Source of the DNA: Bacteroidota bacterium
GTDB taxonomy: Bacteria; Bacteroidota; Ignavibacteria; Ignavibacteriales; Ignavibacteriaceae
Assembly: GCA_023453665.1 (NCBI GenBank)
Contig: JAEXTA010000089.1
Location: 64,846-128,845, forward strand
Reading direction: 5' to 3'
DNA: 64,000 nucleotides
The position numbers and the translations under genes are program-made. Position 1 is the stretch's first letter. Each line of letters begins with the position of its first letter. Below, piece by piece: positions 8,919-49,993 of the stretch. The notes under the pieces were generated by a model. That model saw only the letters and a program-made list of their open reading frames with translations. It had not been told where the DNA came from and did not search any database.

Positions 8919-9010
8919 AAAGTAAAAACAAAAGTATCAGTGCGTTTTCGTAAACTATAAATAATATCTAAATTTGATTCAGAAATTATTTTACAATGTA
9001 ATAAAGCGAT

Positions 9011-10564: not shown

Positions 10565-10670
10565 TTTTTTTTCAGCACGGCGCTCAGAATCCTGTTTGTG
10601 TTTCACTCATCTGACTTTGTGCTATACACAATTACATTCGAAATCAAATAATTATAACAAAGGAGGCACT

Positions 10671-31543: not shown

Positions 31544-34129
31544 TCAGGAAGGATTCGTGATGTGGTTTAATTTTTCTGCTTTTTCTTTTTGATATGTTGA
31601 CTCATAAACTTTAATAAGAAATTCTCTGAACCGAACAGCACTTATATTGTCTGCCCCTCTTTGTTTTACAACCTGCTCATAACCATATAACAATAATTTT
31701 TCTGCTTCGGAATATCTTTTAAGATAGTAGGATGCGATACCTAATTCACCAGAAGCCGTTATTATATTCGGATGGTCTTCGGGATAATTTTTTGATTGAA
31801 TTACCAAAGCATTGCGTAAATATTTTTCTGCGGATACATATTCTTTTTTCTCGAGCAGAACTTTTCCATACCAGTAATTAGTCATTCCCACCCAGATATG
31901 ATCCGGATTAAGTGATGTTTTGAAATTCTCCAGCGCTTTTGAAACATGCTCATAAGATTCTTCAAACTTTCCAGCACGAAACAGAAATCCGCCTAAATTC
32001 ATATAGGCAAGCCCGACCAGTGAATGTTTATCGCCATAGTGATTTATTTTTAATTCAAGTGATTTTTTAAAATACCACTCCGCTTTTTCATTATCGTTTT
32101 TATCAATATAAATGTATCCAAGGTTATTATAATTTGATGAGGCTTCGGGACTGTTTTCACCGAAAAGTTCAATATTCATTTTGAGCGAACGTAAGAAATA
32201 TTTTTCCGCTTGGTCAATTTCTTTTAACTCGTGTAATGTAATTGCAAGATTATTAACAGTGCTTGCAACATCCCTGTCTTTCTCACCAAAATTTTTTTCA
32301 AAAATTTCTAATGCATCCTGGTGATATTTTTTTGCGGTTTCGTATTCTGCATAATCATTTTTAAGAATTCCATAATCATTTAATGCGCTTGCAAGATCTC
32401 TGGGAGGTGCGTCTTTATTCTTTCTAAATATCGAAATACTTTTTTGATAAAGTGAGTCGGCTGTTTTAAGATCAGCAATCCAGTGATAGTAAAATGCAAT
32501 ATCATAAATACTTGCCGCTGCCTGATTGCTTTCATCACCATAAACTTTTTTATTCAGTTGTAAGGCTCTGTCAAGATGCGGTTTCGCCTGATCAAACTCT
32601 CCTAAATTAGTAAGTGTTCTGCCTATTGTTTTTCTGATCGCGGCTTCAATTTCCGGCTGACCTTCAAATCTTTTTCCAACATCATCTGCTGCTTTTTTCA
32701 GAACGTCATATACTTTTACATCTTTTCCTATTTCAGTCGGATCAACAGATGAAAGCATATCCTGTAAAAATTTATTTACAGTTTCAACTTTGATTGCTTC
32801 CGTCCGTGCTTTGTCTCTTTCCATTGCGGCTATATTTGCCTGCCATATGATTGCAATAAGACTGACAATCATAAACAATAAGAATGTTGCGGAAACAACC
32901 ACGCCCTTTTTGTGTCTTTGAACAAATTTTGAAATCCTGTAACCGGCAGTATCTTTTTGTGCAATAACCGGTAAGCCCACAAGGTGTCTTCTGATATCTT
33001 CGGAAAACTGTTCAACAGAAACATATCTTCTTGCAGGATCTTTGTGCATCGCTTTAAGAACTATGTTATCAAGATCTCCCCTGAGTTTATGAAAAAGTTT
33101 TTGACGTTTATCCTCTTGTTTGTTTTCATTATCCGATGCTGATTGGTTATTGCTATCACTTTCAGCAAGTTTTGAAATTGTTTTTCGAAATCGATCACTG
33201 GGTTTAATTATGTTTTCTTCTGTAATTATTTTGCTTATTGCGGATGGCGAGTTGTTTGTGATTTTGTACGGCTGTTCTTCCGTAAGAATCTGGTACAGCA
33301 TTACACCGAGTGAATAGATATCGCTTGTAGTTGTTATCTGCTCGCCTTTGATTTGTTCAGGACTTGCATACTCCGGTGTAAGGTGCCACATACCCGTACG
33401 CGTAAGTCCTTCTTCATTTTCCAGGATGTTTTCATCAAGCAGTTTGGCAATTCCAAAATCTAAAAGCTTGGGGTGACCGTCATTTGTGACTAAAATATTT
33501 CCTGGTTTAATATCCCTGTGGACGACAAGATTCTGATGCGCATATTGAACAGCGCTGCAAACATCTCTGAATAATTTTAATTTCTGATTAATGTTCAAAT
33601 TATTCTGGACGCAGTATTCAGTAATAGGAATGCCGTCTATAAATTCCATTACAAGATAAGGAAGTCCTTCATCGGTCTGTCCACCGTCAAGCAGTTTAGC
33701 TATGAAAGGATACTGAAGACTTGCAAGTGTTTGTCTCTCAATTAAAAATCTTTTAAGGTGATAATCAGAATTCAGACCATGTTTTAAAATCTTTATTGCA
33801 ACTTTTTGTTTGAAGTTTTTATCATTTCTTTGTCCTGAATACACAATACCCATTCCACCGTAACCGGCTTTGCCTTCAATTATAAAGCTTCCTATCTGTT
33901 TGCCAATGTAAGGGTCTGTTATAGAATTTCTTTTTTCATTAATGCCCGAAACCTGCTGTTCAATAAAGTCTTCCGTATTTTCGAGTGAATTGATAAGCGA
34001 GATGATTTCTTTTTTTAATTCTGAATCATTCCCGCATTTTAAATCTAGAAAACTTTCTCGCTCACTCTGCGGAAGCAGCAATGTTTCGTCAAACAATTGG
34101 CGGATTAGTAATAATCGTTCTTTATTCAA
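31544..34129 (-). CDS. Membrane Ser/Thr protein kinase with C-terminal TPR domain
   Basis: Hanks motifs (AIKILK, HRDIKPGNIL, DFGIAK, TPEYASPEQ). Single TM (VVVSATFLLFMIVSLIAIIW) followed by a TPR region. TTG start 15 nt after the sigma-factor stop. Confidence 0.9.
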   Translation of the reverse strand: MNKERLLLIRQLFDETLLLPQSERESFLDLKCGNDSELKKEIISLINSLENTEDFIEQQVSGINEKRNSITDPYIGKQIGSFIIEGKAGYGGMGIVYSGQRNDKNFKQKVAIKILKHGLNSDYHLKRFLIERQTLASLQYPFIAKLLDGGQTDEGLPYLVMEFIDGIPITEYCVQNNLNINQKLKLFRDVCSAVQYAHQNLVVHRDIKPGNILVTNDGHPKLLDFGIAKLLDENILENEEGLTRTGMWHLTPEYASPEQIKGEQITTTSDIYSLGVMLYQILTEEQPYKITNNSPSAISKIITEENIIKPSDRFRKTISKLAESDSNNQSASDNENKQEDKRQKLFHKLRGDLDNIVLKAMHKDPARRYVSVEQFSEDIRRHLVGLPVIAQKDTAGYRISKFVQRHKKGVVVSATFLLFMIVSLIAIIWQANIAAMERDKARTEAIKVETVNKFLQDMLSSVDPTEIGKDVKVYDVLKKAADDVGKRFEGQPEIEAAIRKTIGRTLTNLGEFDQAKPHLDRALQLNKKVYGDESNQAAASIYDIAFYYHWIADLKTADSLYQKSISIFRKNKDAPPRDLASALNDYGILKNDYAEYETAKKYHQDALEIFEKNFGEKDRDVASTVNNLAITLHELKEIDQAEKYFLRSLKMNIELFGENSPEASSNYNNLGYIYIDKNDNEKAEWYFKKSLELKINHYGDKHSLVGLAYMNLGGFLFRAGKFEESYEHVSKALENFKTSLNPDHIWVGMTNYWYGKVLLEKKEYVSAEKYLRNALVIQSKNYPEDHPNIITASGELGIASYYLKRYSEAEKLLLYGYEQVVKQRGADNISAVRFREFLIKVYESTYQKEKAEKLNHITNPS

Positions 34130-34144
34130 TTGATAATAGAGGTT

Positions 34145-34786
34145 TTAGTTAGATTGTATTTCGCGGTAGAGCCATGCTTTGGCAAAGTTCCAGTCACGCT
34201 TAGCTGTTGCGGGTGAAATATTCAGAACTTCCGCGGCTTCTTCGATTGTTAAACCGGAGAAATATCTCAGCTCAATAATTTTACAGGAACGTTCTTCAAC
34301 CTGTTCAAGTTTTTTCATCGCGTCATCAAGCGCCAGTAGTTGTTCATCGCTTTTATCAGATAAATTAAACACATCATCAAGAGAGAGATTTTCTTTTCCC
34401 TCGCCTCTTTTAAGTGATTTTCTTTTGCGTGCATGATCAACAAGAATATTTCTCATAGAATTTGCTGCTATACCAAAAAAGTGAGCGCGGCTTTGCCATG
34501 CGATATTCTGATCACCAACTAATTTGATATAAGCTTCGTGAACCAATTCAGTAGTCTGAAGTGTATGATTTCTGTATTCATCACGTAAATACTTTGAAGA
34601 GATTTTTTTTAATTCGCTGTAAACATGAGGAAGTAGTTCGTCCACCGCCCCTTTTCTTCCCTTAACACAATCCTCCAGGAGTATTGTAATATTTTGAGGT
34701 GTTAATTCAGACAAGATATTTTTTAGCTTTCTTATTAGATACTTTGATGCTGAAAGTAAATTAGTCTTTTGATTGTTGTTTGTCAA
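34145..34786 (-). CDS. ECF-type sigma factor (PF07638 / TIGR02999-like)
   Basis: Close paralogue of 29079..29645 (AVDELLPHVYSELKKISSKYLRDEYRNHTLQTTELVHEAYIKL; LRYFSGLTIEEAAEVLNISPATAKRDW). TTG start. The true start is uncertain because of a ~25-aa N-terminal extension relative to the paralogue. Confidence 0.85.
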   Translation of the reverse strand: MTNNNQKTNLLSASKYLIRKLKNILSELTPQNITILLEDCVKGRKGAVDELLPHVYSELKKISSKYLRDEYRNHTLQTTELVHEAYIKLVGDQNIAWQSRAHFFGIAANSMRNILVDHARKRKSLKRGEGKENLSLDDVFNLSDKSDEQLLALDDAMKKLEQVEERSCKIIELRYFSGLTIEEAAEVLNISPATAKRDWNFAKAWLYREIQSN

Positions 34787-35309: not shown

Positions 35310-35348
35310 TTCTCACCCGAATGAATAATAGAGGGTATCAATAATCTT

Positions 35349-35375
35349 GTAGAGACGGGACAGTTCCGTCTCTAC
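35349..35375. repeat. Intergenic GTAGAGAC-family palindrome (probable bidirectional terminator)
   Basis: GTAGAGACGG-GACAGTT-CCGTCTCTAC is a perfect 10-bp stem with a 7-nt loop between convergent genes. The right arm contains the stop codon (35372-35374) of the minus-strand metallopeptidase gene. Confidence 0.85.
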
Positions 35376-36208
35376 AAATTATTTGTATTAAATGTGTTTC
35401 CCTGGTTTATATCTCCGGTTGTAAAACCTTTATAGAACCATTTCTTTCTTTGCTCAGATGTCCCATGTGTAAAAGATTCAGGAACAACATAACCCTGCGA
35501 GCTTTTTTGAATGCGATCATCGCCGACAGCACTTGCAGCGTTCAATGCTTCTTCAAGATCACCTTCATCAAGCAGATCTAGTCTTTCTGTGTAATGAGCC
35601 CAAACTCCTGCATAAAAATCAGCCTGAAGTTCAAGCCGTACAGAATACTTGTTATACTCTTGTTCACTAACCCTTGAACGAAGCTGGTTCATTTTATCCA
35701 TTGTTCCGGTTAAGTTCTGTATATGATGTCCAACTTCATGAGCAATTACATACGCCATTGCAAAATCACCAGGCGCTTTAAATTTCTGCTGAAGCTCATT
35801 ATAAAAACTTAAGTCAATATAAAGTTTTTCGTCCGCCGGACAGTAAAACGGACCCGTTGATGAACCTGCAACTCCGCAGGCGGATTCTACTTTTCCGCTG
35901 TATAAAACCAAAATTGGTTTTCTGTATGTTTCACCTTGTTCACTGAAAATTTTATCCCATACATTTTCAGTTTCTGCAAGAACAACAGAAACAAATTGAG
36001 CAAGTTCTTTATCCTCGGCGCTTTCTGTGTAGTTTGAGCTTCCTGTATCAGAAGAAACATTTTGAAGAATTGAAGTTGGATCACCGCCTAGCAGAAGTAC
36101 AACAATAACAATTGCAATTGTGCCTATTCCTCCGCCTACCATACCTTTGGGAGATAATCCTCTTCTATCTTCAACGTTTGAACTTTGTCTTCTTCCCTGC
36201 CAGCGCAT
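35372..36208 (-). CDS. YpfJ-type neutral zinc metallopeptidase (PF04228-like)
   Basis: Canonical N-terminus MRWQGRRQSSNVEDRRG, a TM segment, and HExxH (IAHEVGHHIQN). Confidence 0.85.
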   Translation of the reverse strand: MRWQGRRQSSNVEDRRGLSPKGMVGGGIGTIAIVIVVLLLGGDPTSILQNVSSDTGSSNYTESAEDKELAQFVSVVLAETENVWDKIFSEQGETYRKPILVLYSGKVESACGVAGSSTGPFYCPADEKLYIDLSFYNELQQKFKAPGDFAMAYVIAHEVGHHIQNLTGTMDKMNQLRSRVSEQEYNKYSVRLELQADFYAGVWAHYTERLDLLDEGDLEEALNAASAVGDDRIQKSSQGYVVPESFTHGTSEQRKKWFYKGFTTGDINQGNTFNTNNL

Positions 36209-36317: not shown

Positions 36318-36349
36318 ATAAAAAGCGGACATTAAATTATGTCCGCTTT
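36318..36349 (-). terminator. Rho-independent terminator after the giant T9SS gene pair
   Basis: 11-bp stem AAAGCGGACAT / ATGTCCGCTTT with a 6-nt loop, followed by a T5 run on the minus strand. Confidence 0.75.
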
Positions 36350-36395: not shown

Positions 36396-39300
36396 CTATT
36401 TTATCAGAATCATCTTCTTAGTTTCAACGAAACTTCCAGCCTGCAGTTTATAGAAATAAATTCCACTTGCTAAACCGGAAGCATTAAAACTGACCATGTA
36501 AACTCCTCTGTCTTTTTCTTCATTAACGAGCGTTGCAACTTCATTGCCGAGTATATCATAAACCTTCATTGTTACATTGCTTCTTTGCGGAATTGAAAAC
36601 TGAATTGTTGTTACAGGATTGAAAGGATTGGGATAATTTTGTGCAAGGTGGAAGTTGTCTGGTGAAAGCAGAGAACCTCCATCTTTAATTCCCGTTATTT
36701 CATTTTTGAGTGAGAGTGTATCGTCAGTTGTTCCGTCATTGCCGATATCGACTAATATCTTAACAGGCTGGTTTTGAAGATCATTCCAGTCGGGGACAAT
36801 CTGATGAGAAGAGTTTTCTGCAAGATTAATATTACTATTACTGAACTTATAATTACCCAACGAAGATACATATCTGATTTCAAGTTCATAATTTTTCTCA
36901 TCACCATGATTTTTTAGCAGAATATTTTCACGGTTCAGTTCACTTAAATTTATTGAATCATTCTGCACAGCCTCTAAATCTTTAACAACAAAAACTCTTT
37001 CGCTGCTGAATGAGTCGAGTATCACCTGAAGATTTAAATTCTTTTCTGAAACATCAGGAGAGAACAACGTGAGATTATTGTTTAATGTTATCTGATCAGT
37101 CTGATTTAATTCAGCATCCTCTCTTGAGTAAATATAGATTGTTGAATCTTTTATAAATGAAATAAAGGCGGAAGACGAATCAAAATGACTGAGATTAAGT
37201 TTATAAGATTCATTTGGAACGAAATAGCTTATCGGCGGATGATCCCTGCCAATTTTGGGTATTACAGGAATTGCACCGGGTATTGAATTAAAGCTAACAC
37301 CGCTGCTGTATCCAATTGAATCTCCCAATGAATTTACGATACTGATATTATTAGATATATCACTTCCTATTAAAGTTGTCCCCTCAAAAAAGGGTGATCC
37401 AGAAGGTGCAGTAAGTTTTCCCAGAACAGGCGAAGTAAAATATTTTACAGCCGGAATCTCTAAATAAAACCTGTTATTTCCTGTAGGCCAGTTTAATCCA
37501 AGATATTCATCCCAGGTATTATTTAATGAATCAATTTCTAAAAATGCATTATCATTTCCGGGATTGTTGCTGTCATAAACATATATTTGAAAAAGATTTC
37601 CAAAACGCTCCAGTTTATATGGAACTACTGTATGCCCGCCGCTTCCGCCAACATTGAAGAAGCTAATAGCTTTCACTGAGTCCGGAGTTTCCATTTTAAA
37701 AAGATCTTTTAGTTCCTGTAGTGTTTGACGAGGAGTTTTATTTCGGCTTGCAAGATAGTTCTCAACATCTGCTTGTCCATACTGATGCGTAAAATATCCG
37801 TTTATTGCTTTTCGGGAAGTTGTGTTAATAAATAAATCATAAAGATTAGTGAAGTTTGGAATACCGGGATGTCTTGATAAAAACTCATCCTTAAAAGCAA
37901 ACGCAAGTAAACTGGACGTAGCAAATCCATAACAGGAGCCACCCCAGACATCTTTAATATTTCTCCATTTTATTGCTGCACTGCTTTTTGGTATTCCTTC
38001 ATTAATCCAGTAAGTCTGGTTTACACCAAACTGCTCAACGAATAATTGCCAGTCGGGAAAATCCTTCGACACCGCAGACATAGGTGGATTTACAAAATAT
38101 GATGGATATGGGTTTCCGGTAATGTTATCAATTCCTGAATAATCAAACTGGCTCCACCATACATTCGGCCAGATATCTGTAGTATCATTTTGCATTTGCC
38201 ACCCATCTTCTGATGGTAAAAATGCTTCATAAGTTGAATCACTTTTTATTCTTGTAATTACATACGGTTTAATTCTGAATACACCGCTTTTTACATTAAT
38301 ACTTGTATCGTTTGCATCTTGAATTTTTATTATACATTTACGCGAAAGAATTGTATCAGGAATTTCCCAGATATATTTCCCTGAATCGGTAAAATAATTT
38401 TCAACAATTGGAGTGAATTCTCCGCTGCCATTATCATAATTAATACTTAGATAAATATTTACTGAATCTACACCCGCCCATTTAATCGTATCGGTTTCAC
38501 CGGCAATGAATAAATTACCAGCCGAAGGTTTTATAAAAGATAGCGAAGAAGTAATATTAATTGGTCCAAGTATTTCTTCAGCACCCGGTGCAGTAATTCT
38601 AATGTATGCACTATCTGTATTTATATTTGGTATGTTCCAGGAATACCAACCATGACCTGTATGCTCACCATTTAAATGCATAACAGGCGCATTGTCAATA
38701 AACATAAAGGAGCTTCCATCAGCACTCCACTCCAGAGTTACATCTCCGTTTATACCCGAAGCACTCCAATGGATTTCAAGTTGATTTCCACCCTGAACAG
38801 AGTATTGATATATTTTACCGGCTATACCTATGGTACAATCATTAGTAGTACGCAGAACACGTGTAAAAGATCCTTCATAACCAGCAATAGCAAAGCCGTC
38901 ATTACTTATAAGAGTAACCGTTCCATCTGATCCATCGGGGAGAAGATCATCGAATATCACGGGGATAAGGTTAGGATGAAGTCCGCTTTGAATAAGAATA
39001 TCATAAAAATTTGTAACAGAACTTCCCGACCACCAAACATATTTGGTTGTATATCCCGGGGGGCGACGCTGATATGCAAGGATTGACCCATTATCCGTTA
39101 CAAATAAACCTTCGTCATCCGGATCACTTCCGGGCATTATTTCCACGCTGCCATTTGACCAACGGAATGCGAATACATCATTCTGGGAGTCCCAGAAATA
39201 TCCTGTGGTATATAAACCATTACCTGATATATCATTAATTCTGACTGTTACATTCTCAAATCCCTCCATTGATTCCCAAACGCCCGAAGATGCTTTCCAG

Positions 39301-39842
39301 ATAACCGGTTGATTATTTTCAAGCCCCACACGTGTGTTCCCATCGTTGGAAATTGCTCTGAGATTTAAAGCTGGTGCACCCGCAGTTTGCCATCCATTTG
39401 ATGATGTCCAGATATACCCCCTCCCCTGATTTTGTGAATTTACAAGGTTTGCAAAAACCGACCCGCTATTACTAACTCCAACAACATTGTAACCAGATAA
39501 GTTTGGAGGGAATGGCATTGGCAGAATATTTCCGGTTTCTGTCTCCCAGCGATTCCAGTTACCTGAAACGAGTAAAACATAATTTCCATTTTCAGATACA
39601 GCAATTGGTTGTCCATTAGATACCGAAGTAGTTTTTAATCCGGTTGAAACAGAATAATAGTACACATGGCTGCCGCTGGAACTATAGCCTCTACCGACAT
39701 AACCCTTACCATTGCTGGTAATAAAATCTAATGATTGAAATTCAATAAATTCATCAATTAGTGCGCGAACATCTTCTATACATTGCGAAAATGATGTGTT
39801 GATTAAAAAAAATGCAAAAAAAGTTGTTAATATTTTTTTCAT
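36396..39842 (-). CDS. Giant T9SS-sorted protein with a conserved Cys/His/Asp core of unassigned family
   Basis: Signal peptide and C-terminal NYPNPFNPVTTIQF...KKMILIK. The central region is shared with 39880..43017 (FRIKPYV.TR, WGGSC(Y/F)G, GG.GGH, VYD(S/N)). Confidence 0.85.
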   Translation of the reverse strand: MKKILTTFFAFFLINTSFSQCIEDVRALIDEFIEFQSLDFITSNGKGYVGRGYSSSGSHVYYYSVSTGLKTTSVSNGQPIAVSENGNYVLLVSGNWNRWETETGNILPMPFPPNLSGYNVVGVSNSGSVFANLVNSQNQGRGYIWTSSNGWQTAGAPALNLRAISNDGNTRVGLENNQPVIWKASSGVWESMEGFENVTVRINDISGNGLYTTGYFWDSQNDVFAFRWSNGSVEIMPGSDPDDEGLFVTDNGSILAYQRRPPGYTTKYVWWSGSSVTNFYDILIQSGLHPNLIPVIFDDLLPDGSDGTVTLISNDGFAIAGYEGSFTRVLRTTNDCTIGIAGKIYQYSVQGGNQLEIHWSASGINGDVTLEWSADGSSFMFIDNAPVMHLNGEHTGHGWYSWNIPNINTDSAYIRITAPGAEEILGPINITSSLSFIKPSAGNLFIAGETDTIKWAGVDSVNIYLSINYDNGSGEFTPIVENYFTDSGKYIWEIPDTILSRKCIIKIQDANDTSINVKSGVFRIKPYVITRIKSDSTYEAFLPSEDGWQMQNDTTDIWPNVWWSQFDYSGIDNITGNPYPSYFVNPPMSAVSKDFPDWQLFVEQFGVNQTYWINEGIPKSSAAIKWRNIKDVWGGSCYGFATSSLLAFAFKDEFLSRHPGIPNFTNLYDLFINTTSRKAINGYFTHQYGQADVENYLASRNKTPRQTLQELKDLFKMETPDSVKAISFFNVGGSGGHTVVPYKLERFGNLFQIYVYDSNNPGNDNAFLEIDSLNNTWDEYLGLNWPTGNNRFYLEIPAVKYFTSPVLGKLTAPSGSPFFEGTTLIGSDISNNISIVNSLGDSIGYSSGVSFNSIPGAIPVIPKIGRDHPPISYFVPNESYKLNLSHFDSSSAFISFIKDSTIYIYSREDAELNQTDQITLNNNLTLFSPDVSEKNLNLQVILDSFSSERVFVVKDLEAVQNDSINLSELNRENILLKNHGDEKNYELEIRYVSSLGNYKFSNSNINLAENSSHQIVPDWNDLQNQPVKILVDIGNDGTTDDTLSLKNEITGIKDGGSLLSPDNFHLAQNYPNPFNPVTTIQFSIPQRSNVTMKVYDILGNEVATLVNEEKDRGVYMVSFNASGLASGIYFYKLQAGSFVETKKMILIK

Positions 39843-39879
39843 TTGATTCTCTTTTTTATAAAAAATTATTTGAATCCTA

Positions 39880-42800
39880 CTAACGGAGTAAAATCATTTT
39901 CTTAACTTGACTAAAAGTACCAGCCTGAATTTGATAGATGTAAATTCCGCTTGCTAAATTTGCTGCATCAAAAGTAATTGAGTAAACGCCTCTTTCTTTT
40001 TCTTCATTAACAAGAGTAGTTACTTCTTTTCCAAGTATGTCATATACTTTAAATGTAACATTGCTTCTTTGAGGGATTGAATATTGAATTGTTGTTACAG
40101 GATTAAAAGGATTGGGATAATTCTGAGCAAGATTATAACCGTCCGGGGAAAGAAGTGAGCTTTCATCTTTAATTCCTGTTACTTCATTTTTGAGTGAAAG
40201 AGTATCGTCAATTATTCCATCGTTCCCTATATCAACCAGTATCTGTAGTTCCGTATTTGATAAAGTCGTCCACTCAGGAATGAATGTATGTGATGTATTT
40301 CCGGTAAGTTGAATATCAAAAGAACCAAATCTTCCTACACCATTTTCTGTTATATAGTTAAGTTCTACATCATAGTGTTTAGCAGAACCATAAGAAATGA
40401 GCTTTACCTTATTACTGTCGGGGTTTTCAATCTTTACAGAATCGTTTTGTGCAAGCTCAAGTGATCTTATAACGGTTAATTTCTCCTGCGTTGTCTCATT
40501 AATAAGATTTAGCAGTTTAATAGTTTTAGTTTGTGCATCAGGATTTGTAATGGAAATTCCGCCATCAAAAAACAATTTGTCGGTTTCATTTTGTTCTGCG
40601 CCATATCTTTCATAAGAAAATGATTTGCTGCCGGTGAAGAAAAAAACTTCTATCGTATCTTCAGTAAATCCATCCAGGTTTACTGAATAATTATCTGTTG
40701 TTAAAGAATAACCATAAGGAGGTGTTTCACTGCCATTATCAACAATAAGCGGTGAAGAATTGGGAATATCATTCAGAATATTATTGTTGATGAATCCTGT
40801 TATATTTCCAAAACTATCTGTAATCTGAACAGATGCATTTACAGGATTAAATATCTGCAATAGTGTATCTTCGAGAATGAATGGAGAGTTTTGTTTACCA
40901 CCCTTACTCATAGTAGGAATGTTTAAATAATCGATTGCAGGATCTCTAAGATAAAATTTACCGTCTCCACCCCACCCGGGCCAATCAGGATTATCCCAGC
41001 TTCCTATTCCTCCATTTGCAGATGTATCAATCACAATCCTGTTAATTGAATCCGGATAAGAGTTATCATAAACTTTTACATAAAAAATATTTGGATTAAC
41101 GCCATCTTTTTCTAATCCATAAGCTAAAATTGCATGTCCGCCTCCACCTCCATTATTATTAAAACTCAAAGTTCTGACTTGTGCATTATCATCCTTAAAC
41201 ATATCGATTAATTCTATAAGTGTTTCCTTAGGAGTTTTGTTAAGCCCAATAGTTCGCCTATAATTCAGATGAGGGTTCCCTTTCTGATGTGTGTACAATT
41301 CATTAATAACTTTTTTAACACCTTCATTTGAAGCAACTGTAAGGGGGTTTACAAAATTGGGAAACTCGGGATATTTAGTTCTGAAAGCATTTTTATCCCG
41401 GAATGCCAGAGCATTTGCAATTGCAATTCCGAAACAGGAACCTCCCCAGGGATCTCTCCATGCTTTCCATTTGAGAACCGCATCTGACTTATATATTCCA
41501 AGAAATGTACTGTAATAACAAGCATCTGCTGTGAAAGTATTTACCCAGGAAATCCAATCGGGATGATTAGCGATATTTGCATTTACAAATGTTCCATCTG
41601 CCTGCCAACGCGAATACTGGCTTCCGGTGAAAGGGTCTATTCCATTATAATCAAACTGCAGCCACCATTGCGGAGGCCACATATGTTCAATTGCATTTTC
41701 AAATCCCCATTGGTCTCTGTTCTTTCTATAATCATAATAAGTCGAATCAATATTTACTCTTGTTAGTACATATGGTTTGATTCTGAAAATTCCACTTTCA
41801 ATTGTTTCAGAAATATTATCAGCATTTTCAACTATAATTTTTGTTCTGTATGAAAACAGATTATCCGGGATATCCCAATCAAAACTAAATTGATTTAAAG
41901 GCGTACCTTGTGCAATTATAATTTCTCCTTGCAATGGAGTACCGACATTTGTTATGCACTTAATGTTGACTGCATTCCAGTTTGGTCCTGTCCATGAAAT
42001 TGTGTAAGTCTCACCTGAAATCCTTTTAACATAAGGCGAGGGTCTTCCTATTCCTGAGATTATTTCTCCGGGATTTAAAAGCCAGGCACCTCCACCTCCA
42101 ACAATCTGGTTTAGATTATTAATACTATTTGCCTGCACCAACGGCAATGAAGTCGTTAATGTATTAAGATCGGTCATTACACCATTTTCCCAGATAAAAG
42201 CTTTTGTAGTTCCGTTGGCATCTTCCGAGTATCCAACTACCTGACCTAAATCATTGATACCTTGTGCTACACTATTATTACCACCAAGAGTTCCAAGATC
42301 GGTTATAATACCATTTTCCCACATAAATGCTTTAGCTTGTCCATTCACGTCAACGTATGATCCGACAATTTTTCTATCACTATTAATATCATTTGCTTCT
42401 CCACGCAAATTTCCGAGACCGATCATTTGACCATTATCCCAGAGGAAAGGTCTTTGAACCTGATCGGTATCTCTTGCAGTACCTACGACTTGTCCTGAAT
42501 TATTAATTGCATAAGCCCAGCTTTCATAACCACCAAGGGTACCAAGAAATCTAAGGCTGTCGCCTTCAAATATGAACGCCCTTTTGTTGGGATGCTGCAA
42601 AGTATCTGCAACCCCGACTACTTGTCCTGAGTTATTAATATCATAAGCTAAACTATTTGGTCCACCGAAAGTACCTATCTCAGTCATATTTCCATTCTCT
42701 AAAATAAACGCACGGCTAAAGTTATTTGTATTGGCAAAACCCACTATTTGTCCTGCATCATTAATAGCAAATGCGCCGCTGTTGGGACCGCCCAAAGTAC

Positions 42801-43017
42801 CAAGGTCTGTCATTGTACCATCCTCCCATAAGAAAGCGCGGGTTCTATTATCCGGGTAGCTTGCCTGACCGACAACCTGACCCTGGTTATTAATGTCATT
42901 AGCAGAGCCCATACTTCCTCCAAAAGTTCCGATATTTATAAACTCGTATTGAGTCTGTGCAAGACCAGAGACTGCCGTTAGAAAAGAGAATAAAGCGATT
43001 ACAACCATTTTATTCAT
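39880..43017 (-). CDS. Giant T9SS-sorted protein: HAF-type extracellular repeats + the same Cys/His/Asp core
   Basis: Signal peptide. About 6-7 HAF-family-like repeats (..AF.WE.G.M.DLGTLGG..S.A..IN..GQVVG). Central core and last ~120 aa are homologous to 36396..39842. C-terminal NYPNPFNPVTTIQY...KKMILLR. Confidence 0.85.
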   Translation of the reverse strand: MNKMVVIALFSFLTAVSGLAQTQYEFINIGTFGGSMGSANDINNQGQVVGQASYPDNRTRAFLWEDGTMTDLGTLGGPNSGAFAINDAGQIVGFANTNNFSRAFILENGNMTEIGTFGGPNSLAYDINNSGQVVGVADTLQHPNKRAFIFEGDSLRFLGTLGGYESWAYAINNSGQVVGTARDTDQVQRPFLWDNGQMIGLGNLRGEANDINSDRKIVGSYVDVNGQAKAFMWENGIITDLGTLGGNNSVAQGINDLGQVVGYSEDANGTTKAFIWENGVMTDLNTLTTSLPLVQANSINNLNQIVGGGGAWLLNPGEIISGIGRPSPYVKRISGETYTISWTGPNWNAVNIKCITNVGTPLQGEIIIAQGTPLNQFSFDWDIPDNLFSYRTKIIVENADNISETIESGIFRIKPYVLTRVNIDSTYYDYRKNRDQWGFENAIEHMWPPQWWLQFDYNGIDPFTGSQYSRWQADGTFVNANIANHPDWISWVNTFTADACYYSTFLGIYKSDAVLKWKAWRDPWGGSCFGIAIANALAFRDKNAFRTKYPEFPNFVNPLTVASNEGVKKVINELYTHQKGNPHLNYRRTIGLNKTPKETLIELIDMFKDDNAQVRTLSFNNNGGGGGHAILAYGLEKDGVNPNIFYVKVYDNSYPDSINRIVIDTSANGGIGSWDNPDWPGWGGDGKFYLRDPAIDYLNIPTMSKGGKQNSPFILEDTLLQIFNPVNASVQITDSFGNITGFINNNILNDIPNSSPLIVDNGSETPPYGYSLTTDNYSVNLDGFTEDTIEVFFFTGSKSFSYERYGAEQNETDKLFFDGGISITNPDAQTKTIKLLNLINETTQEKLTVIRSLELAQNDSVKIENPDSNKVKLISYGSAKHYDVELNYITENGVGRFGSFDIQLTGNTSHTFIPEWTTLSNTELQILVDIGNDGIIDDTLSLKNEVTGIKDESSLLSPDGYNLAQNYPNPFNPVTTIQYSIPQRSNVTFKVYDILGKEVTTLVNEEKERGVYSITFDAANLASGIYIYQIQAGTFSQVKKMILLR

Positions 43018-43030
43018 TGTATTATTCCAT

Positions 43031-43372
43031 TTAAGTTTTAAATATTTCTTCTATTCTTTCCAGGTTGTCTTTATTAACAAATTCTATCGCCCCGGATCTT
43101 ATTGATGCTTCAATAATTCTTTTGTCATTGAATTGCGATACGATTATTATTTTTGCTTCAGGATGATTTGTTTTTATTTCACGCATTGCTTTTAATCCAT
43201 CCATTTTTTTCATCTTGATGTCCATTAAAACCCAATCAGGTTTAAATTCTTTATATGTTTTGATCGCATCATCGCCATCTTCACATTCATTGATTTCAGT
43301 AAAATGCTCAACACACAATCTTTTTAAGATTGAGCGCATAACGGGATTATCATCTGCAATCAGGAGTTTCAT
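43031..43372 (-). CDS. Single-domain response regulator (CheY-like receiver)
   Basis: MKLLIADDNP start at the ATG at 43372 (the track's TTG at 43402 adds 10 aa). Receiver Asp in VLMDIKMKKMDG and conserved K in the KIIIVSQ region. The stop is 13 nt before the start of 39880..43017. Confidence 0.85.
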   Translation of the reverse strand: MKLLIADDNPVMRSILKRLCVEHFTEINECEDGDDAIKTYKEFKPDWVLMDIKMKKMDGLKAMREIKTNHPEAKIIIVSQFNDKRIIEASIRSGAIEFVNKDNLERIEEIFKT

Positions 43373-43470
43373 TTTTTTATTATTAATTTTGACTTGCTTC
43401 AATTTGGTTTGGTAATATTGAAAGTTAAATGAGTAATACCCCTTAATTTTATAGGTAGAAACCCCTAGAA

Positions 43471-43625: not shown

Positions 43626-44282
43626 TTAAAGAAGGGCTTTGTTCGTTATCGCAAATTTCACAAGGCTATGAGCGCCATGAAGATTAAGTTTTTTTGAAAT
43701 GTTTGTTCTGTGGTTATCAACAGTTTTGGTGCTAATAAAAAGTTCTTCGGCAATTTCTTTTGTAGTCTTTTCTTCAGCTATAAGTTTTAAAATTTTTCTT
43801 TCCATTTTTGTCAGATCCTCTATTGATGGACACGACTGTATCAGATCTTTATTTTTCTTTTCTCTTTTTAAAAGTAAATGTGATAGTGCCGGGCTTATAT
43901 AATGGATTCCGTCAGCAACTTTCTTTATACAGTCAACGATATCATCAATGGCATTTTCTTTTAATACAAATCCCATAGCTCCGGCATTCATTGCAAAGTT
44001 GAACATTCTTTCATCATTATACATTGTGATAAAAACTATGCGGGTTTGTATTTCGTACTCTTTTAATTTTCCTATAATTTCCAACCCGCTTAGGCCAGGC
44101 ATTTCAACATCGAGAGTTGCAATGTCAAAATTATTTTTTCTCAATAATTCTAATGCTTCAATTCCGTTTTTCGCTTCAGTAATTTTTTCAACTTCAGGCA
44201 TCTGAACCAATACTGAGTTCAATCCCTGTCTTATAATAGGATGATCATCCGCAATCAATATTTTAATTTTTTTGTTTATCAA
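43626..44282 (-). CDS. NarL/FixJ-family response regulator (REC + LuxR HTH)
   Basis: KILIADDHPI, DVEMPGLSG and a C-terminal LuxR HTH (LTKMERKILKLIAEEKTTKEIAEELFISTKTVDNHRTNISKKL). TTG start. Confidence 0.9.
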   Translation of the reverse strand: MINKKIKILIADDHPIIRQGLNSVLVQMPEVEKITEAKNGIEALELLRKNNFDIATLDVEMPGLSGLEIIGKLKEYEIQTRIVFITMYNDERMFNFAMNAGAMGFVLKENAIDDIVDCIKKVADGIHYISPALSHLLLKREKKNKDLIQSCPSIEDLTKMERKILKLIAEEKTTKEIAEELFISTKTVDNHRTNISKKLNLHGAHSLVKFAITNKALL

Positions 44283-44347: not shown

Positions 44348-44430
44348 GGCTAAAGCCGTAATTATTTATTTTCTTAACCCGACTTAAAAGTCGGGGCAAT
44401 TAGTAGTTGCCCCGAACTTTAGTTCGGGGA
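44348..44430. repeat. REP-like repeat (left flank) with two hairpins
   Basis: GGCTAAAGCCGTAATTATTTATTTTCTTAACCCGACTTAAAAGTCGGGG followed by the second hairpin CCCCGAAC-TTTA-GTTCGGGG. Confidence 0.7.
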
Positions 44431-44464: not shown

Positions 44465-44899
44465 TCAGTCTTTTACAATATCAAAACCATACTTTTTAAT
44501 AAACACATCAAATTCTTCCATAAATGTCTTTTCCTTATGATGTTCTTCCTGGTTATTTATATAATCTATGACTTTTTCTACAATTGATTTCGCAACTGAT
44601 ACAGCTATATAATCATCCTGCCATTCAAATTTTCCCCGGATTAATTTGTTTTTATTAATCCAAAACGAAGATTCTCCTTTTATTAACTGTGCTACTTTGC
44701 TAATAGTTTGGTCATTACCCAAGGAAAGAAGAATATGAATATGATCAGCTGTACAATTCATACAAATAATAAAAATATTTTTTGAAACAGAGTTTTCTTT
44801 AATGTGAGCTAATAATTTCTGTTTAAGTTCCTTTGTTATAATTTTTTCTCTATTCTTTGTAGAGAAAATTAAATGAACAAGAATTTTTATATATGGCAT
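44465..44899 (-). CDS. IS200/IS605-like Y1 transposase (REP-associated tyrosine transposase-like)
   Basis: The 144-aa size fits. HUH-like motif (ADHIHILLS), LIKGESS motif and WQDDYIAVSV (candidate catalytic Tyr), in the order seen in Y1_Tnp/RAYT proteins. Confidence 0.8.
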   Translation of the reverse strand: MPYIKILVHLIFSTKNREKIITKELKQKLLAHIKENSVSKNIFIICMNCTADHIHILLSLGNDQTISKVAQLIKGESSFWINKNKLIRGKFEWQDDYIAVSVAKSIVEKVIDYINNQEEHHKEKTFMEEFDVFIKKYGFDIVKD

Positions 44900-44978: not shown

Positions 44979-47900
44979 TCATATCGGCAACTTAATCATC
45001 ACTTCAGTTCCTTTTCCTGATTCAGAATTAATTTTTATTTCCCCCTTAATCAGGTTTATTCTCTTTTTTAAATTTTCCAGACCAAATCCTTTTGCGTAAT
45101 CTTGCGCCGATATTTCTCCTGATTGAGAGAAGCCGATTCCGTTATCTTTTATTTTGATGACGATCTCAAATTCTTTTTTTTCAATTGTTATTTCTGCTTT
45201 CTCTGCACGTGAGTGTTTAATAATATTATTTATACACTCCTGAATAATTCTGAACAGATTTATTTCTGTTTCCTTTAATAAAATATTATCAATGTTATCT
45301 GCCTTAATATCAAAATTAATCTGCGAAGATATTTCAGCATTATCTAAAATTGAAAGTATCGCGTTTGTTAAACCCAATCTTTCAAGATGATAAGGATGAA
45401 GGTTGTAAGCGATTCTTCTCACTTCATCGATTGCGGAGGCAGTGTTATCTGAAATATCTTCAAAATGTTTAATACCTGTTTCCAGCTCTTTGCTTTTTTT
45501 ACCAAGCGAAGCATAATTTTTTATTAACAGCAAATTTTGTCCGATGCTATCGTGAAGCTCCGAGGCTATTCTCTTTCGTTCTTCTTCCTGTGATTGAATT
45601 AATCTCTTTGAAAATTCCTCCTGTGATTTTTTTTCTTTTTCCAGATTTGATATTCTAAGTCTGTATATAAATCCTACGATACCTATTAAGCCGAATATTA
45701 ATATTCCTCTGAACCAGAACGTTGCCCAGAATGGTGGTTTGATAATTAACAATACCGAAACACCCGCTTCATTCCAGCTGCCAGCATGATTTGTTGCTTT
45801 TACTCTGAATATATATTCGCCAGGGTCAAGATGCGTATAATTTGCAAATCTCCTGTTGTCAACATAGTTCCAGTTTTTATCAAGACCCTCAAGCTTGTAC
45901 GCATATTTATTTCTCTCGGGTAAAGTATAGTCAAGTGATGCAAACTCAAAAGAAAAATTATCTTCATCATAGTTCAGCCGCAGTGTGTCTGCATACGAAA
46001 TATTTTCGGAAAAAATTTTTTCGTTATTGTGAACCTTAAATGATGTAAGCGTAACAGGAACCAACGATGAGTTTGTTGAAAGACTGTCAGGATGAAAATA
46101 ATTTATTCCGTTCAATCCGCCGAAATAAAACATTCCGTTTTTCGTTTTTAATTTTGCCGCAGGGTTGAACTCACCTTTTTGCAAACCATCGTTAAAATCA
46201 TAATTCTTAAAAGTTTTTGCCGTTAGTGAAAATTTTGAAATACCTTTTGAAGTGCTTATCCACAGATTATAGTTATCGTCTTCAAGAATACCGCAAACAA
46301 AATTTCCCGCCAGTCCGTTTTCTTCGGTATAAGTTTCGAAAATGTTTTTTTGTGAATCATATCTGGATAACCCGCCGGAGAAAGTTCCAACCCACAACAC
46401 TCCTTTCGAATCCACAAATAATTCAGGAACGGATATATCTCCTAACGAGGTTGTATCATCATCATTGGGAAAAAAATGCTGAAAAGATTTTTTCTTTTTA
46501 TCAAATTTATTCAGGCCTTTACTGAATGTACCTATCCATAAAAATCCGTCAGAGTCTTCTGTAATTGAGAGAATGCCATCACCACTTATGTTAGAATTTT
46601 TTGTGTTTAGTACTTCAAACGTATTGGTGCCGGCGTTAAACTTTTTTAATCCATCACCGTTTGAACCAAACCATAAATTTCCTTCAGAATCTTCAAAGAT
46701 AGTCCGGATATTATTGGCGCCGGGATTATCTTTTTCAAAATCGAGATCATACTTAATGAAAGAATCAGTTTCACGATCATACTTATTTAATTTTCCGAAG
46801 TAAGTCCCGACCCATAAATTGAACTTGCTGTCCTCAAAAATGTAGCGAATTATTTCGCCTTCAACAGATGCTTTACCAGCTGTAGAATAGGTTTTAATTC
46901 TGCCATCTGGAAATAATTTGCATAAATAACTGTAAGTGCCTATCCAGATATCACCTGCTTTATCTTCGCACATGGTGAAAATAAAATCCTCGGGCAGACT
47001 GTTCTGTTTCCCGGCCGTTGTTTTTATTGTTGAAAATTTTTTTTGCTTACGATCTGTTTTAAAAACTCCGCCAACAATTGTACCTATCCACAGGTTGGAT
47101 GTATTATCCTCATAAATTGTTCTGCCATTGTTCGACGAAACATCGGTTGGATTTTGAGGACTAAGAGCAACCGGAAAGAACTTATTCAATTCATAGTCAT
47201 AATAACATATCCCGTTGGATTGGGTTGCAATCCAGATCAAACCCTGATTGTCTTCAAAGATTTTCCATATAAAATTGCCTGTAAGAGAACCGGGGCTAAG
47301 ATCAGCCTTAAAGTTTGTGAAGATTTTATTTTCATTGTTGAATCTGTCAATGCCATCACCATAAGTTCCAATCCATAAATTACCTTTTGAATCTTCAAGA
47401 AGAGTAACTGCGCTTGTACCACTTATTGATGTGCCAGGGTTTTTATCTGGAAGATAGTGGGTGAAATTATTGTTTGATCTGTCAAAAAGATTCAAGCCGC
47501 CTTTTTCGGTTCCTACCCATAAGTTATCTTTAGAATCTTCATAGACACACCATATTTTATCACTGCTGATTGATTTTTCATCTTCCGGATTATGTTTAAA
47601 CCTGTTAAATGAATCAGAAGCAGGATCGTATAAATTTAAACCCTCACTCCATGTCCCGACCCATAAATTATTTTGTTTGTCAATGTACACACACTGAACA
47701 ATGTCCGAACTTAGTGAGCTTGTATTAAGGCTGTCGAATTTATACTGTATAAATTTTTCAGTTACAGGATCAAACTTATTCAAACCACCGCCGTTTGTTG
47801 CAATCCAGATATAACCGTTTTTATCTTCACACAACGACCAAATATAATTGTGTGATAAGGAATTGTTGTCCCCTCGTTTTTTATAATATGATTTGAATCT

Positions 47901-48104
47901 ATAACCATCATATCTGTTAAGCCCCTCTTCGGTTCCTATCCACAGAAAACCTTTTTTATCCTGTATGATTGATGTAACCCTGTTCGAGCTTAATCCATTT
48001 TCCAAAGTAAGATTTTGAAAATAAAATTCCGGTAACTGTGCTTTAACAGGAAAACATATAAACAAAACTATAACGATGAAATGAATAAAGTTGTTTTTTC
48101 TCAA
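44979..48104 (-). CDS. Sensor histidine kinase: two-component-regulator propeller + Y_Y_Y + TM + HisKA_3/HATPase
   Basis: Signal peptide. Many W(I/V)GT..GL..(F/Y)D propeller repeats. TM (FWFRGILIFGLIGIVGFIY). HisKA_3 H-box (ELHDSIGQNL), N-box (NNIIKHS) and G-boxes (DNGIGF, GFGLENLKKR). TTG start. Confidence 0.9.
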   Translation of the reverse strand: MRKNNFIHFIVIVLFICFPVKAQLPEFYFQNLTLENGLSSNRVTSIIQDKKGFLWIGTEEGLNRYDGYRFKSYYKKRGDNNSLSHNYIWSLCEDKNGYIWIATNGGGLNKFDPVTEKFIQYKFDSLNTSSLSSDIVQCVYIDKQNNLWVGTWSEGLNLYDPASDSFNRFKHNPEDEKSISSDKIWCVYEDSKDNLWVGTEKGGLNLFDRSNNNFTHYLPDKNPGTSISGTSAVTLLEDSKGNLWIGTYGDGIDRFNNENKIFTNFKADLSPGSLTGNFIWKIFEDNQGLIWIATQSNGICYYDYELNKFFPVALSPQNPTDVSSNNGRTIYEDNTSNLWIGTIVGGVFKTDRKQKKFSTIKTTAGKQNSLPEDFIFTMCEDKAGDIWIGTYSYLCKLFPDGRIKTYSTAGKASVEGEIIRYIFEDSKFNLWVGTYFGKLNKYDRETDSFIKYDLDFEKDNPGANNIRTIFEDSEGNLWFGSNGDGLKKFNAGTNTFEVLNTKNSNISGDGILSITEDSDGFLWIGTFSKGLNKFDKKKKSFQHFFPNDDDTTSLGDISVPELFVDSKGVLWVGTFSGGLSRYDSQKNIFETYTEENGLAGNFVCGILEDDNYNLWISTSKGISKFSLTAKTFKNYDFNDGLQKGEFNPAAKLKTKNGMFYFGGLNGINYFHPDSLSTNSSLVPVTLTSFKVHNNEKIFSENISYADTLRLNYDEDNFSFEFASLDYTLPERNKYAYKLEGLDKNWNYVDNRRFANYTHLDPGEYIFRVKATNHAGSWNEAGVSVLLIIKPPFWATFWFRGILIFGLIGIVGFIYRLRISNLEKEKKSQEEFSKRLIQSQEEERKRIASELHDSIGQNLLLIKNYASLGKKSKELETGIKHFEDISDNTASAIDEVRRIAYNLHPYHLERLGLTNAILSILDNAEISSQINFDIKADNIDNILLKETEINLFRIIQECINNIIKHSRAEKAEITIEKKEFEIVIKIKDNGIGFSQSGEISAQDYAKGFGLENLKKRINLIKGEIKINSESGKGTEVMIKLPI

Positions 48105-49833: not shown

Positions 49834-49993
49834 GATTCTCCTTTTATTACGATGAGTGAGAAATAACTTAAAGAATATTAAACTAAGTGACAATGAAATA
49901 ATATTTTTTCATTTACCGTATATTCAATAGTAAGTTTAAAATGTGTCCTTTAATTTATTTGGGATCTTAATTTTCAATTAAGAAAAAGCGAAT

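Follow-up and report, generated by a model that had tools for sequence, protein, structure and literature searches.

The 64,000-nucleotide stretch of DNA analysed here (the window) comes from a Bacteroidota bacterium of the family Ignavibacteriaceae (GenBank assembly GCA_023453665.1, contig JAEXTA010000089.1, positions 64,846 to 128,845) and carries two large neighbouring genes on its minus strand, P1 and P2, which encode putative type IX secretion system (T9SS) cargo. A preliminary description of this DNA, made from the letters alone, had reported two proteins of 1148 and 1045 amino acids (aa), and their open reading frames (ORFs) were confirmed on the minus strand (Table 1); the gap between them measures 37 nucleotides (nt). 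We consider it likely that P1 and P2 form a tandem pair of paralogues from a large T9SS cargo family, which has no name yet. Its constant module would include a very divergent papain-fold (clan-CA-like) domain of a thiol hydrolase with Cys, His and Asp as its triad, and a cysteine endopeptidase is the most likely kind of enzyme.

The module shared by P1 and P2

BLASTP joined P1 415-1148 and P2 304-1045 in a single unbroken alignment of ~750 aa with 40% identity (E = 3e-169), which spans the immunoglobulin-like (Ig-like) domain, the Cys-His-Asp core, a post-core region of ~220 aa, an Asp/Gly-rich loop and the C-terminal sorting domain (CTD). The preliminary description had limited the common part to a central region of ~280 aa and the last ~120 aa, which falls short of this one long alignment. 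It had also called the last ~120 aa near-identical, where we measured 77% identity for the last 120 aa, in protein and DNA alike, compared to 28-44% elsewhere and 41-44% in the core. Recent gene conversion was considered as a reason for the better conserved C-terminus and rejected, because identity at the third codon positions of this part is just 0.61; hence, the CTD rather seems to be under constraint.

Conservation of the Cys-His-Asp core

Three short motifs provide the candidate catalytic residues, namely Cys637, His737 and Asp757 in P1 and Cys528, His628 and Asp651 in P2. The codons proposed for these motifs turned out to be exact in both proteins, and so did the spacing: in P1 as well as in P2 the His follows exactly 100 residues after the Cys, and the Asp follows the His after 20 residues in P1 and 23 residues in P2. 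Cysteines are few, as P1 contains four of them and P2 three, with the motif Cys being the sole Cys of P1 downstream of the Ig-like domain.

An alignment of homologues, which the preliminary description had suggested as a check, found the triad to be nearly invariant. Among close homologues, the Cys was present in 73/73, the His in 72/72 and the Asp in 72/73 sequences (one Glu), and in a wider set of ~200 sequences reaching down to ~30% identity the counts were 204/204, 203/203 and 197/203, with four Asn and two Glu at the remaining Asp positions. Six-frame ORFs of loci from reference genomes gave a similar picture (Cys 55/56, His 54/54, Asp 53/54 plus one Asn). Asp, Asn and Glu are known as alternatives at the third triad position of clan-CA enzymes. 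For ~200 homologues that are only 30-60% identical, such conservation is far beyond chance, and the three residues appear to behave as a catalytic triad across the family.

The surroundings of the Cys are conserved as well, since the motif GSC(F/Y)G retains its first G in 204/204, the S in 188/204, the C in 204/204 and the last G in 195/204 sequences. Further invariant positions (N441, Y457, D461, W488, W517 and G526 in P2 numbering) seem to point to a large, cleft-forming N-terminal subdomain. The position of C500 in P2 is ~92% conserved across the family and is occupied by Thr in P1. Only one copy with a replaced nucleophile was observed; it stems from a Bacteroidota metagenome-assembled genome (MAG; DAIPLH010000017.1, locus L047, 5290-7611), carries Ala instead of Cys ('GAAGSFA') and keeps His and Asp. 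This copy looks like an inactivated (pseudoenzyme) paralogue, and occasional inactivated paralogues are expected in enzyme families.

The core had been described as unassigned, and this view held in searches of Pfam (2025 copy) and NCBIfam (June 2026). Neither library matched the core of P1 or P2, the isolated cores gave no Pfam match at E <= 10, and the core of 94 homologues remained without a Pfam match in scans at E <= 1 or E <= 0.001. Specifically, no model of C1, C10, C39, C47, C58, NlpC/P60, CHAP, Transglut_core or BtrH_N matched, neither in Pfam (both proteins, isolated cores and 94 homologues) nor in NCBIfam (both proteins). The post-core region of P2, which is present in almost every family member, also had no Pfam or PDB match.

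Predicted fold of the core

Models of the core were built with AlphaFold2 (AF2) from family alignments, of which a 79-sequence alignment was used. The whole core (P2 aa 405-720) reached a predicted local distance difference test score (pLDDT) of 92.1 and a predicted template modelling score (pTM) of 0.90, and the catalytic lobes alone (P2 aa 504-704) reached 93.1 and 0.87, respectively. Both models have the same secondary structure, i.e. a helical lobe followed by six consecutive antiparallel strands that are connected by short loops. In the lobe model, six consecutive helices occupy residues 8-105 and the Cys heads the second one. DSSP places the Cys at the very start of a 13-residue helix in both models (124-136 in the whole core, 25-37 in the lobes), and four more helices follow. 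In the lobe model, His125 takes the second position of strand 124-134, the hairpin partner 141-148 ends with Asp148, and three more short strands come later in this lobe; in the whole-core model the Asp directly follows the partner strand. As modelled, the placement of Cys, His and Asp would correspond to a papain-type arrangement, in which the register of the hairpin sets His beside Asp. The papain-like order and layout proposed in the preliminary description was thus reproduced by AF2 as far as the Cys/His/Asp order, the Cys at a helix start and the His/Asp hairpin are concerned, while a significant Foldseek match to a solved clan-CA enzyme was not obtained.

Remote links to known enzymes

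Foldseek searches of the PDB with the whole core and with the lobes, and of BFVD with the whole core, gave no match at E <= 0.001. Clan-CA thiol peptidases accounted for seven (whole core) and ten (lobes) of the top 50 weak PDB matches. With the whole core, T-Mac/TDE0362 with E-64 took rank 1, followed by the staphopains A and C, LapG and cathepsin L. With the lobes alone, staphopain A and C took ranks 1 and 2, and Mac-1, T-Mac (9mdk, TMq 0.45, 238 columns), a Josephin-type clippase, IdeC and two vasohibins came thereafter. Additional matches to cereblon, spindlin and Tudor structures were dismissed as beta-barrel noise.

Profile comparison with hhalign linked the core to the IdeS/Mac profile with P = 0.0064 when 31 core sequences were used, and with a score of 35.9 and P = 4.9e-4 when the core profile comprised 193 sequences; in the controls, reversed sequences scored 14.6-15.3 and 40 block-shuffled ones 12.5-23.3. 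This alignment extends from the final helix of the helical lobe to the third strand of the beta lobe, and it pairs the His of the family with His262 and the Asp with Asp284 of IdeS. A second, weaker alignment, which runs in the same order in both proteins, pairs the Cys with Cys94, W113 with W79 and N131 with N101 (family and IdeS, respectively), and the W and N are conserved in both families. Against a single IdeS sequence, hhalign was not significant (probability 0.2), i.e. the comparison is informative only with family profiles. PF09028, the Pfam model of IdeS/Mac (MEROPS C66), matched neither core at E <= 10 nor any of the 94 homologues. Judged from these profiles, the hhalign result argues for a remote relationship within clan CA, and the core would be a remote relative of IdeS/Mac at most and not a member of C66.

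IdeS, Mac-1 and T-Mac are experimentally verified clan-CA proteases, with the triads C412/H561/N585 in T-Mac and C94/H262/D284 in IdeS and a His-to-acid spacing of 22-24 residues (PMC11833123), which compares to 20-23 in P1 and P2. The IdeS/Mac enzymes (C66, PF09028; T-Mac TDE0362 of T. denticola, PDB 9mdk, 9mdm) resemble the modelled core in the helical lobe that precedes the beta lobe, in the order Cys-His-Asp/Asn and in the Cys at a helix N-terminus. Moreover, T-Mac likewise is secreted and consists of several domains, among them Ig-like ones on the N-terminal side of the protease (PMC11833123). The distance from Cys to His, in contrast, is 149-168 residues in IdeS/Mac and 100 in P1 and P2, and the core family has another N-terminal subdomain with its own invariant residues. 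Furthermore, the family would be exported via a T9SS CTD in environmental bacteria of the Fibrobacteres-Chlorobi-Bacteroidetes (FCB) superphylum with no host-associated lifestyle, whereas IdeS/Mac occur in Firmicutes, Mollicutes and spirochaetes and take another route.

The staphopains (C47; 1cv8, 8oig) are small papain-fold thiol endopeptidases, which gave the best lobe matches in Foldseek (E = 0.076 and 0.15); these E-values are not significant, the template modelling (TM) scores are 0.21-0.29, and a sequence or Pfam match is lacking. They are single-domain enzymes with a propeptide and a dedicated inhibitor, staphostatin, whereas nothing comparable was seen in P1 and P2. Regarding the transglutaminase-like superfamily (LapG C93, vasohibins), the Cys-His-Asp residues on a papain-like core are a common feature with our core, and both enzymes are among the weak Foldseek matches, but they rank below staphopain and Mac with TM-scores of 0.10-0.15, and the core has no match to Transglut_core or a related model in Pfam.

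In their overall organization, the gingipains (C25, clan CD) as well as the streptopain-like enzymes PrtT and interpain A (C10, clan CA) resemble P1 and P2. These secreted thiol peptidases likewise start with a signal peptide and finish with a type-A CTD, and they possess a catalytic domain as well as an Ig-like or beta domain. The gingipains differ by their His-then-Cys order and caspase-like fold; P1 and P2 show no similarity to C25 and no Pfam match to Peptidase_C10. Unlike in the gingipains, PrtT and interpain A, the putative catalytic module of the family is situated C-terminal to the heads, which are large, variable and of the beta-propeller or beta-helix type, and there is no obvious propeptide. 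Cysteine peptidases, including the clan-CA enzyme interpain A, are known T9SS cargo and represent ~3.7% of the type-A cargo annotated in Gene Ontology (PMC11205867). Hence, the new cargo class that the preliminary description expected was an overstatement. What is new is the family, which is large, lies outside Pfam and NCBIfam, has no solved relative and combines a constant enzyme with exchangeable heads.

Heads, spacer domain and export signals

The N-termini of P1 and P2 have a typical signal-like appearance in a by-eye reading of the translations. Clear HAF-type repeats had been proposed for one of the two N-terminal halves, and this was borne out for P2, in which TIGR02913 matched six stretches in NCBIfam (E = 1.6e-71), Pfam added a match to PF11949 (DUF3466), and a hidden Markov model (HMM) made from the repeats of P2 itself gave seven matches. 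The HAF array of P2 is presumed to form a beta-propeller-like binding head. The N-terminal ~420 aa of P1 had been described as degenerate repeats, which could not be confirmed: Pfam and NCBIfam gave no match to this part, the HMM of the P2 repeats did not detect it (E = 2), and its pairwise similarity to the HAF region is weak (E = 0.001-0.004). The reading of the P1 N-terminus as degenerate HAF repeats was rejected, given the failure of the P2-repeat HMM.

The Ig-like domain follows the heads. Its match to Kre9_KNH recurred in 19/55 and 8/39 family members in two Pfam scans. Just before the CTD linker lies a nearly invariant acidic loop, VD-x-GNDG-T/I-IDDT, with 83% identity between P1 and P2; it resembles Ca2+-binding loops of the DxDxDG type and may have a role in Ca2+ binding. 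The T9SS CTD recognized earlier on both proteins was confirmed by PF18962 and TIGR04183, and the matches stop 3 residues short of the C-terminus in P1 as well as in P2.

Size, distribution and architecture of the family

A search with the shared region, from which the HAF repeats and the CTD had been removed, yielded 90 cluster representatives, mostly proteins from Ignavibacteria MAGs, and their names went no further than 'hypothetical', 'T9SS type A sorting domain-containing' or 'SBBP repeat-containing'. With a profile of the core alone, an exhaustive HMMER search increased the number to 1,452 representatives at E <= 0.001 and 377 at E <= 1e-30, both counted as representatives of 50%-identity clusters. 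When a core-only profile was applied to a word-indexed protein collection for relatives with a named Pfam domain, only the same family was recovered. The reference genomes that carry the family belong to Ignavibacteriaceae and Ignavibacterium, Kapabacteria, Zixibacteria, Calditrichia, Rhodothermales and several lineages of Bacteroidota, and they are almost entirely MAGs of the FCB superphylum.

The segment after the end of the core has a median length of 338 aa (133 representatives), i.e. ~250 aa and then the CTD, and a CTD motif was found in 111/133 representatives. The heads vary across the family and comprise SBBP, HAF/DUF3466, right-handed beta-helix/NosD, FG-GAP, BNR, NHL, Kelch or Reg_prop domains, or nothing recognisable. 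Several copies occur per genome, and tandem pairs were present in five of ~42 other loci. Tandem duplication with divergent heads is a recurrent feature of the family; the head-to-tail pairs are situated in the loci L012, L020, L026 (Zixibacteria), L028 (Calditrichia) and L041, with Ignavibacteria included.

Two members deserve separate mention. One full-length protein (P0048/UCH89846.1, 890 aa, with a Por_Secre_tail CTD) is encoded at 8001-10673 of locus L004 (CP070629.1, GCA_020356005.1), on a 3.58-Mb contig labelled 'Thermoplasmata archaeon' and at a distance of two genes from the gene for a ribosomal protein S3Ae of archaeal type. That an archaeal genome holds a cargo gene in T9SS style suggests horizontal transfer or another use of the CTD-like domain. 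The other member, at 4708-7130 of L021 (JADJYU010000012.1), is split inside the core into two overlapping ORFs that cover HMM positions 2-220 and 221-306, and this frameshift reflects either a pseudogene or an assembly error.

Assessment of the possible functions

In our view, the core probably defines a new clan-CA-like family that has diverged strongly; its members would be thiol hydrolases secreted by the T9SS, with endopeptidases as the most likely kind, and we infer both catalysis and substrates. Several points weigh against this assignment. The core has no match in Pfam, NCBIfam or PDB sequences; sequence and profile searches of the PDB matched the CTD only, and a match to optineurin at E = 0.35 is noise. 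None of the Foldseek matches was significant, with best E-values of 0.2 (PDB, whole core), 0.07 (BFVD, whole core) and 0.076 (PDB, lobes), TM-scores of 0.2-0.45 and a large root-mean-square deviation. Since a significant match was found neither in the PDB nor in BFVD, the core domain is remote from every solved structure. The presumed convergence of the triad is deduced solely from secondary structure and hairpin geometry. Moreover, the hhalign probability to IdeS/Mac amounts to just 32% with 193 sequences, the alignment that contains the Cys is not significant alone (P = 0.35), and IdeS/Mac was picked because Foldseek pointed there, which makes the test not fully independent. The oxyanion-hole residue upstream of the Cys is Gln19 in papain and Lys84 in IdeS. 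In the family, a Lys or Arg is present 7 residues before the Cys in 125/193 members (~65%) and the invariant N441 is another candidate, but neither of them can be assigned to this role. Finally, the evidence fits a peptidase and other papain-fold chemistries such as transglutaminase or amidase alike, and the sequence cannot decide between them.

The same fold and triad could serve another chemistry, for example that of a transglutaminase-like cross-linker, an amidase acting on peptidoglycan or glycoconjugates, or an acyltransferase, which we consider unlikely, though not negligible. Transglutaminases and bacterial transglutaminase-like cysteine proteinases have the same Cys-His-Asp order and the same fold, LapG (4fgq, 4fgp) and vasohibins (7zcw, 6j4u) appear among the weak Foldseek matches, the heads are of carbohydrate- or surface-binding scaffold types, and G-S-C-F-G-I-A resembles the C-x-x-F-A signature of the transglutaminase core. 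On the other hand, Transglut_core, NlpC/P60, CHAP and NAT were absent from Pfam scans of ~95 members, the IdeS/Mac endopeptidases represent the sole statistically supported remote link, and the best Foldseek matches are endopeptidases, too (staphopains, Mac-1, T-Mac). The arrangement of the proteins, in which a constant enzyme module always sits between a varying head and the CTD and occurs in several copies per genome and in tandem pairs, would also suit a processing cassette that serves any attached head, i.e. a cis-acting self-processing or sortase-like module that releases or transfers its own head after secretion. This explanation seems improbable, because no conserved candidate cleavage motif was identified between head and core, the Ig-like spacer, together with the large conserved N-terminal subdomain, gives the impression of belonging to a cleft for external substrates, and known T9SS cargo is processed by PorU and not by itself.

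Of similarly low probability is a non-catalytic binding or structural module, in which Cys, His and Asp would be structural or metal-binding residues. Such a view can refer to the missing significant match to any enzyme, to the L047 copy, where the fold tolerates the loss of the Cys, and to the many other invariant residues that are aromatic (W, Y), as is typical of binding surfaces. It is opposed by the near-absolute conservation of Cys, His and Asp/Asn/Glu in papain order and at papain-like positions of the secondary structure down to ~30% identity, and by the alignment of the triad with the catalytic residues of IdeS. In addition, the Cys of P1 cannot form a disulfide, because it is the only Cys in the module, and one inactivated copy in 56 is normal for enzyme families. 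The nearly invariant GSC(F/Y)G would also fit the G-x-Nu-x-G nucleophile elbow of an alpha/beta-hydrolase with a Cys nucleophile. Both AF2 models, however, lack the beta-alpha-beta alternation, the conserved order is Cys, His, Asp and not nucleophile, acid, His, and no alpha/beta-hydrolase is found among the Pfam or Foldseek matches; predicted topology and residue order thus effectively refute this reading, which we consider next to impossible.

Proposed working and significance

In the proposed working, P1 and P2 would enter the periplasm via putative Sec signal peptides and would then be directed to type IX export by the C-terminal type-A CTD, for which the Pfam and NCBIfam matches are given in Table 1. 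The variable N-terminal head may act as target- or substrate-binding module, with HAF repeats in P2, an unassigned head in P1 and SBBP, beta-helix/NosD, FG-GAP, BNR, NHL or Kelch heads elsewhere in the family, and the Ig-like domain could serve as a spacer. In the proposed active site, Cys528 (P2) or Cys637 (P1) would provide a thiolate at the helix N-terminus that is activated by His628 or His737, which in turn would be oriented by Asp651 or Asp757 on the neighbouring hairpin strand. The conserved N-terminal subdomain (~100 aa) and the post-core region (~220 aa) probably give the substrate cleft its shape or aid folding and secretion, comparable to the Ig-like domain of gingipains. P2 and P1 are probably expressed from one transcription unit together with the upstream response regulator, and tandem pairs with differing heads might widen the range of targets.

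Only tentatively can this be extended to a new family of secreted thiol enzymes at the MEROPS level that follows the principle 'constant blade, exchangeable head', in which a papain-fold module of core, post-core region and CTD would have been recombined with many unrelated recognition heads of beta-propeller or beta-helix type, often in tandem; we are inclined to doubt this extension. If true, Ignavibacteria and other FCB bacteria would possess a set of extracellular proteases with specific targets. An even more radical version would see in the enzymes thiol transpeptidases or cross-linkers, which fix heads at the cell surface or set them free there and are controlled by neighbouring two-component systems.

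In case the endopeptidase assignment is true, at least 1,452 clusters that are labelled 'T9SS type A sorting domain-containing protein', 'SBBP repeat-containing protein' or 'hypothetical protein' would gain a biochemical assignment, clan CA would gain a family that is undetected by any Pfam or NCBIfam model, and a new thiol-protease scaffold would become available for enzymology. The proteins of the family are among the largest secreted ones of Ignavibacteria, Kapabacteria, Calditrichia, Zixibacteria and environmental Bacteroidota. Sediments, wastewater reactors and groundwater harbour these groups in abundance, and in such habitats the turnover of extracellular protein drives the cycling of carbon and nitrogen. 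A constant enzyme with swappable binding heads also represents a testable model for the diversification of substrate targeting. The understanding of the T9SS or of papain-like catalysis is left unchanged by these results; they extend a known theme, which is of interest to specialists for peptidases and FCB bacteria and holds no conceptual surprise.

Genomic neighbourhood

Table 1. Features of P1, P2 and their surroundings in the window (positions counted from the first nucleotide of the window)
Feature	Position	Strand	Description and basis
P1	36396..39842	-	1148 aa: putative signal peptide, N-terminal ~420 aa without assignment, Ig-like domain, Cys-His-Asp core, post-core region, T9SS CTD
P1 Ig-like domain, aa 438-516	38295..38531	-	PF10342 Kre9_KNH, E = 1.6e-4, under gathering score
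P1 Cys-His-Asp core, aa ~518-809	37416..38291	-	Family HMM, E = 7.2e-103
P1 Cys637 codon	37932..37934	-	WGGSC(Y/F)G motif
P1 His737 codon	37632..37634	-	GG(S/G)GGH(T/A) motif
P1 Asp757 codon	37572..37574	-	VYD(S/N) motif
P1 T9SS type-A CTD, aa ~1064-1148	36399..36653	-	PF18962, E = 1.8e-11; TIGR04183, E = 7.7e-12
P2	39880..43017	-	1045 aa: putative signal peptide, seven HAF repeats, Ig-like domain, Cys-His-Asp core, post-core region, T9SS CTD
P2 putative signal peptide, Sec-type, aa 1-21	42955..43017	-	MNKMVVIALFSFLTAVSGLAQ; translation by eye: basic start, hydrophobic stretch, small residues before cut site
P2 HAF repeat array, aa 21-307	42097..42957	-	Six full ~43-aa repeats and one partial; TIGR02913, PF11949 DUF3466
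P2 Ig-like spacer domain, aa ~320-410	41788..42060	-	Aligned to P1 438-516, the stretch matching Kre9_KNH
P2 core N-terminal subdomain, aa 405-503	41509..41805	-	Aromatic-rich; invariant N441, Y457, D461, W488; modelled at pLDDT ~90-97
P2 catalytic lobes (predicted), aa 504-704	40906..41508	-	Helical lobe with Cys helix, then six-strand antiparallel beta lobe; AF2 model, hhalign to IdeS/Mac, weak Foldseek matches
P2 Cys528 codon	41434..41436	-	Putative nucleophile, first helix residue; WGGSC(Y/F)G motif
P2 His628 codon	41134..41136	-	Putative general base, beta-strand start; GG(S/G)GGH(T/A) motif
P2 Asp651 codon	41065..41067	-	Putative third triad member, end of hairpin partner strand; VYD(S/N) motif
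P2 post-core conserved region, aa 721-925	40243..40857	-	Conserved G741, P767, R804, D813, Y882, W916
P2 Asp/Gly-rich loop and linker, aa 926-960	40138..40242	-	VDIGNDGIIDDT; D929, N932, G934, D937, D938 nearly invariant
P2 T9SS type-A CTD, aa 961-1045	39883..40137	-	PF18962, E = 3.7e-12; TIGR04183, E = 6.3e-12
Second ECF sigma factor gene	29079-29645		PF07638-type; <6 kb from the first
T9SS type-A cargo gene	29819-31447	-	SBBP-like and CTD
Ser/Thr kinase	31544-34129		861 aa, with TPR repeats; follows the first ECF sigma factor gene
First ECF sigma factor gene	34145-34786		PF07638-type
YpfJ-like putative neutral Zn metallopeptidase	35372-36208	-	PF04228, E = 2.7e-111; directly downstream of P1, past the hairpin
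Terminator-like hairpin	36322..36349	-	11-bp stem and T-run, 47 nt after P1 stop; consensus match only
Single-domain response regulator	43031..43402	-	PF00072, E = 6.6e-25; ends 13 nt before P2 start
LuxR-type response regulator gene	43626-44282		Upstream of P2
IS200-like Y1 transposase gene	44465-44899	-	PF01797, E = 1.6e-25; between histidine kinase and LuxR-type regulator
Reg_prop/Y_Y_Y histidine kinase gene	44979-48104		Upstream of P2
T9SS type-A cargo gene	48229-49893	-	Kelch beta-propeller and CTD

The hairpin after P1 is the probable end of a transcription unit. Between the response regulator and P1, the minus strand contains no terminator-like site except a weak 5-bp stem inside the coding region of P2. 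Because of the terminator-like hairpin downstream and the lack of any site other than this weak stem in between, it is likely that the response regulator, P2 and P1 are co-transcribed as one unit. Further upstream, the IS200-like transposase gene may split a two-component operon that consists of the histidine kinase and LuxR-type regulator genes.

As two further T9SS type-A cargo genes flank P1 and P2, the window represents a cluster of secreted beta-propeller proteins. A conserved gene neighbourhood was also considered for the family and rejected, since kinase neighbours occur in some loci only and an obligatory partner, inhibitor or immunity gene was not seen; among the homologue loci, one has a similar Y_Y_Y kinase with a response regulator, one a similar Ser/Thr kinase and two have neither of them. 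On the other side of P1, the module of extracytoplasmic function (ECF) sigma factor and Ser/Thr kinase may be a recurring regulatory module for clusters of secreted proteins in Ignavibacteria.

Some minor observations can be added. The homologue P0022 in locus L005 has a Ser/Thr kinase upstream of it that is similar to the one in the window. A long perfect inverted repeat at 35346-35378 overlaps the stop codon of the YpfJ-like gene, and nested hairpins with stems of up to 11 bp are present at 44391-44429.

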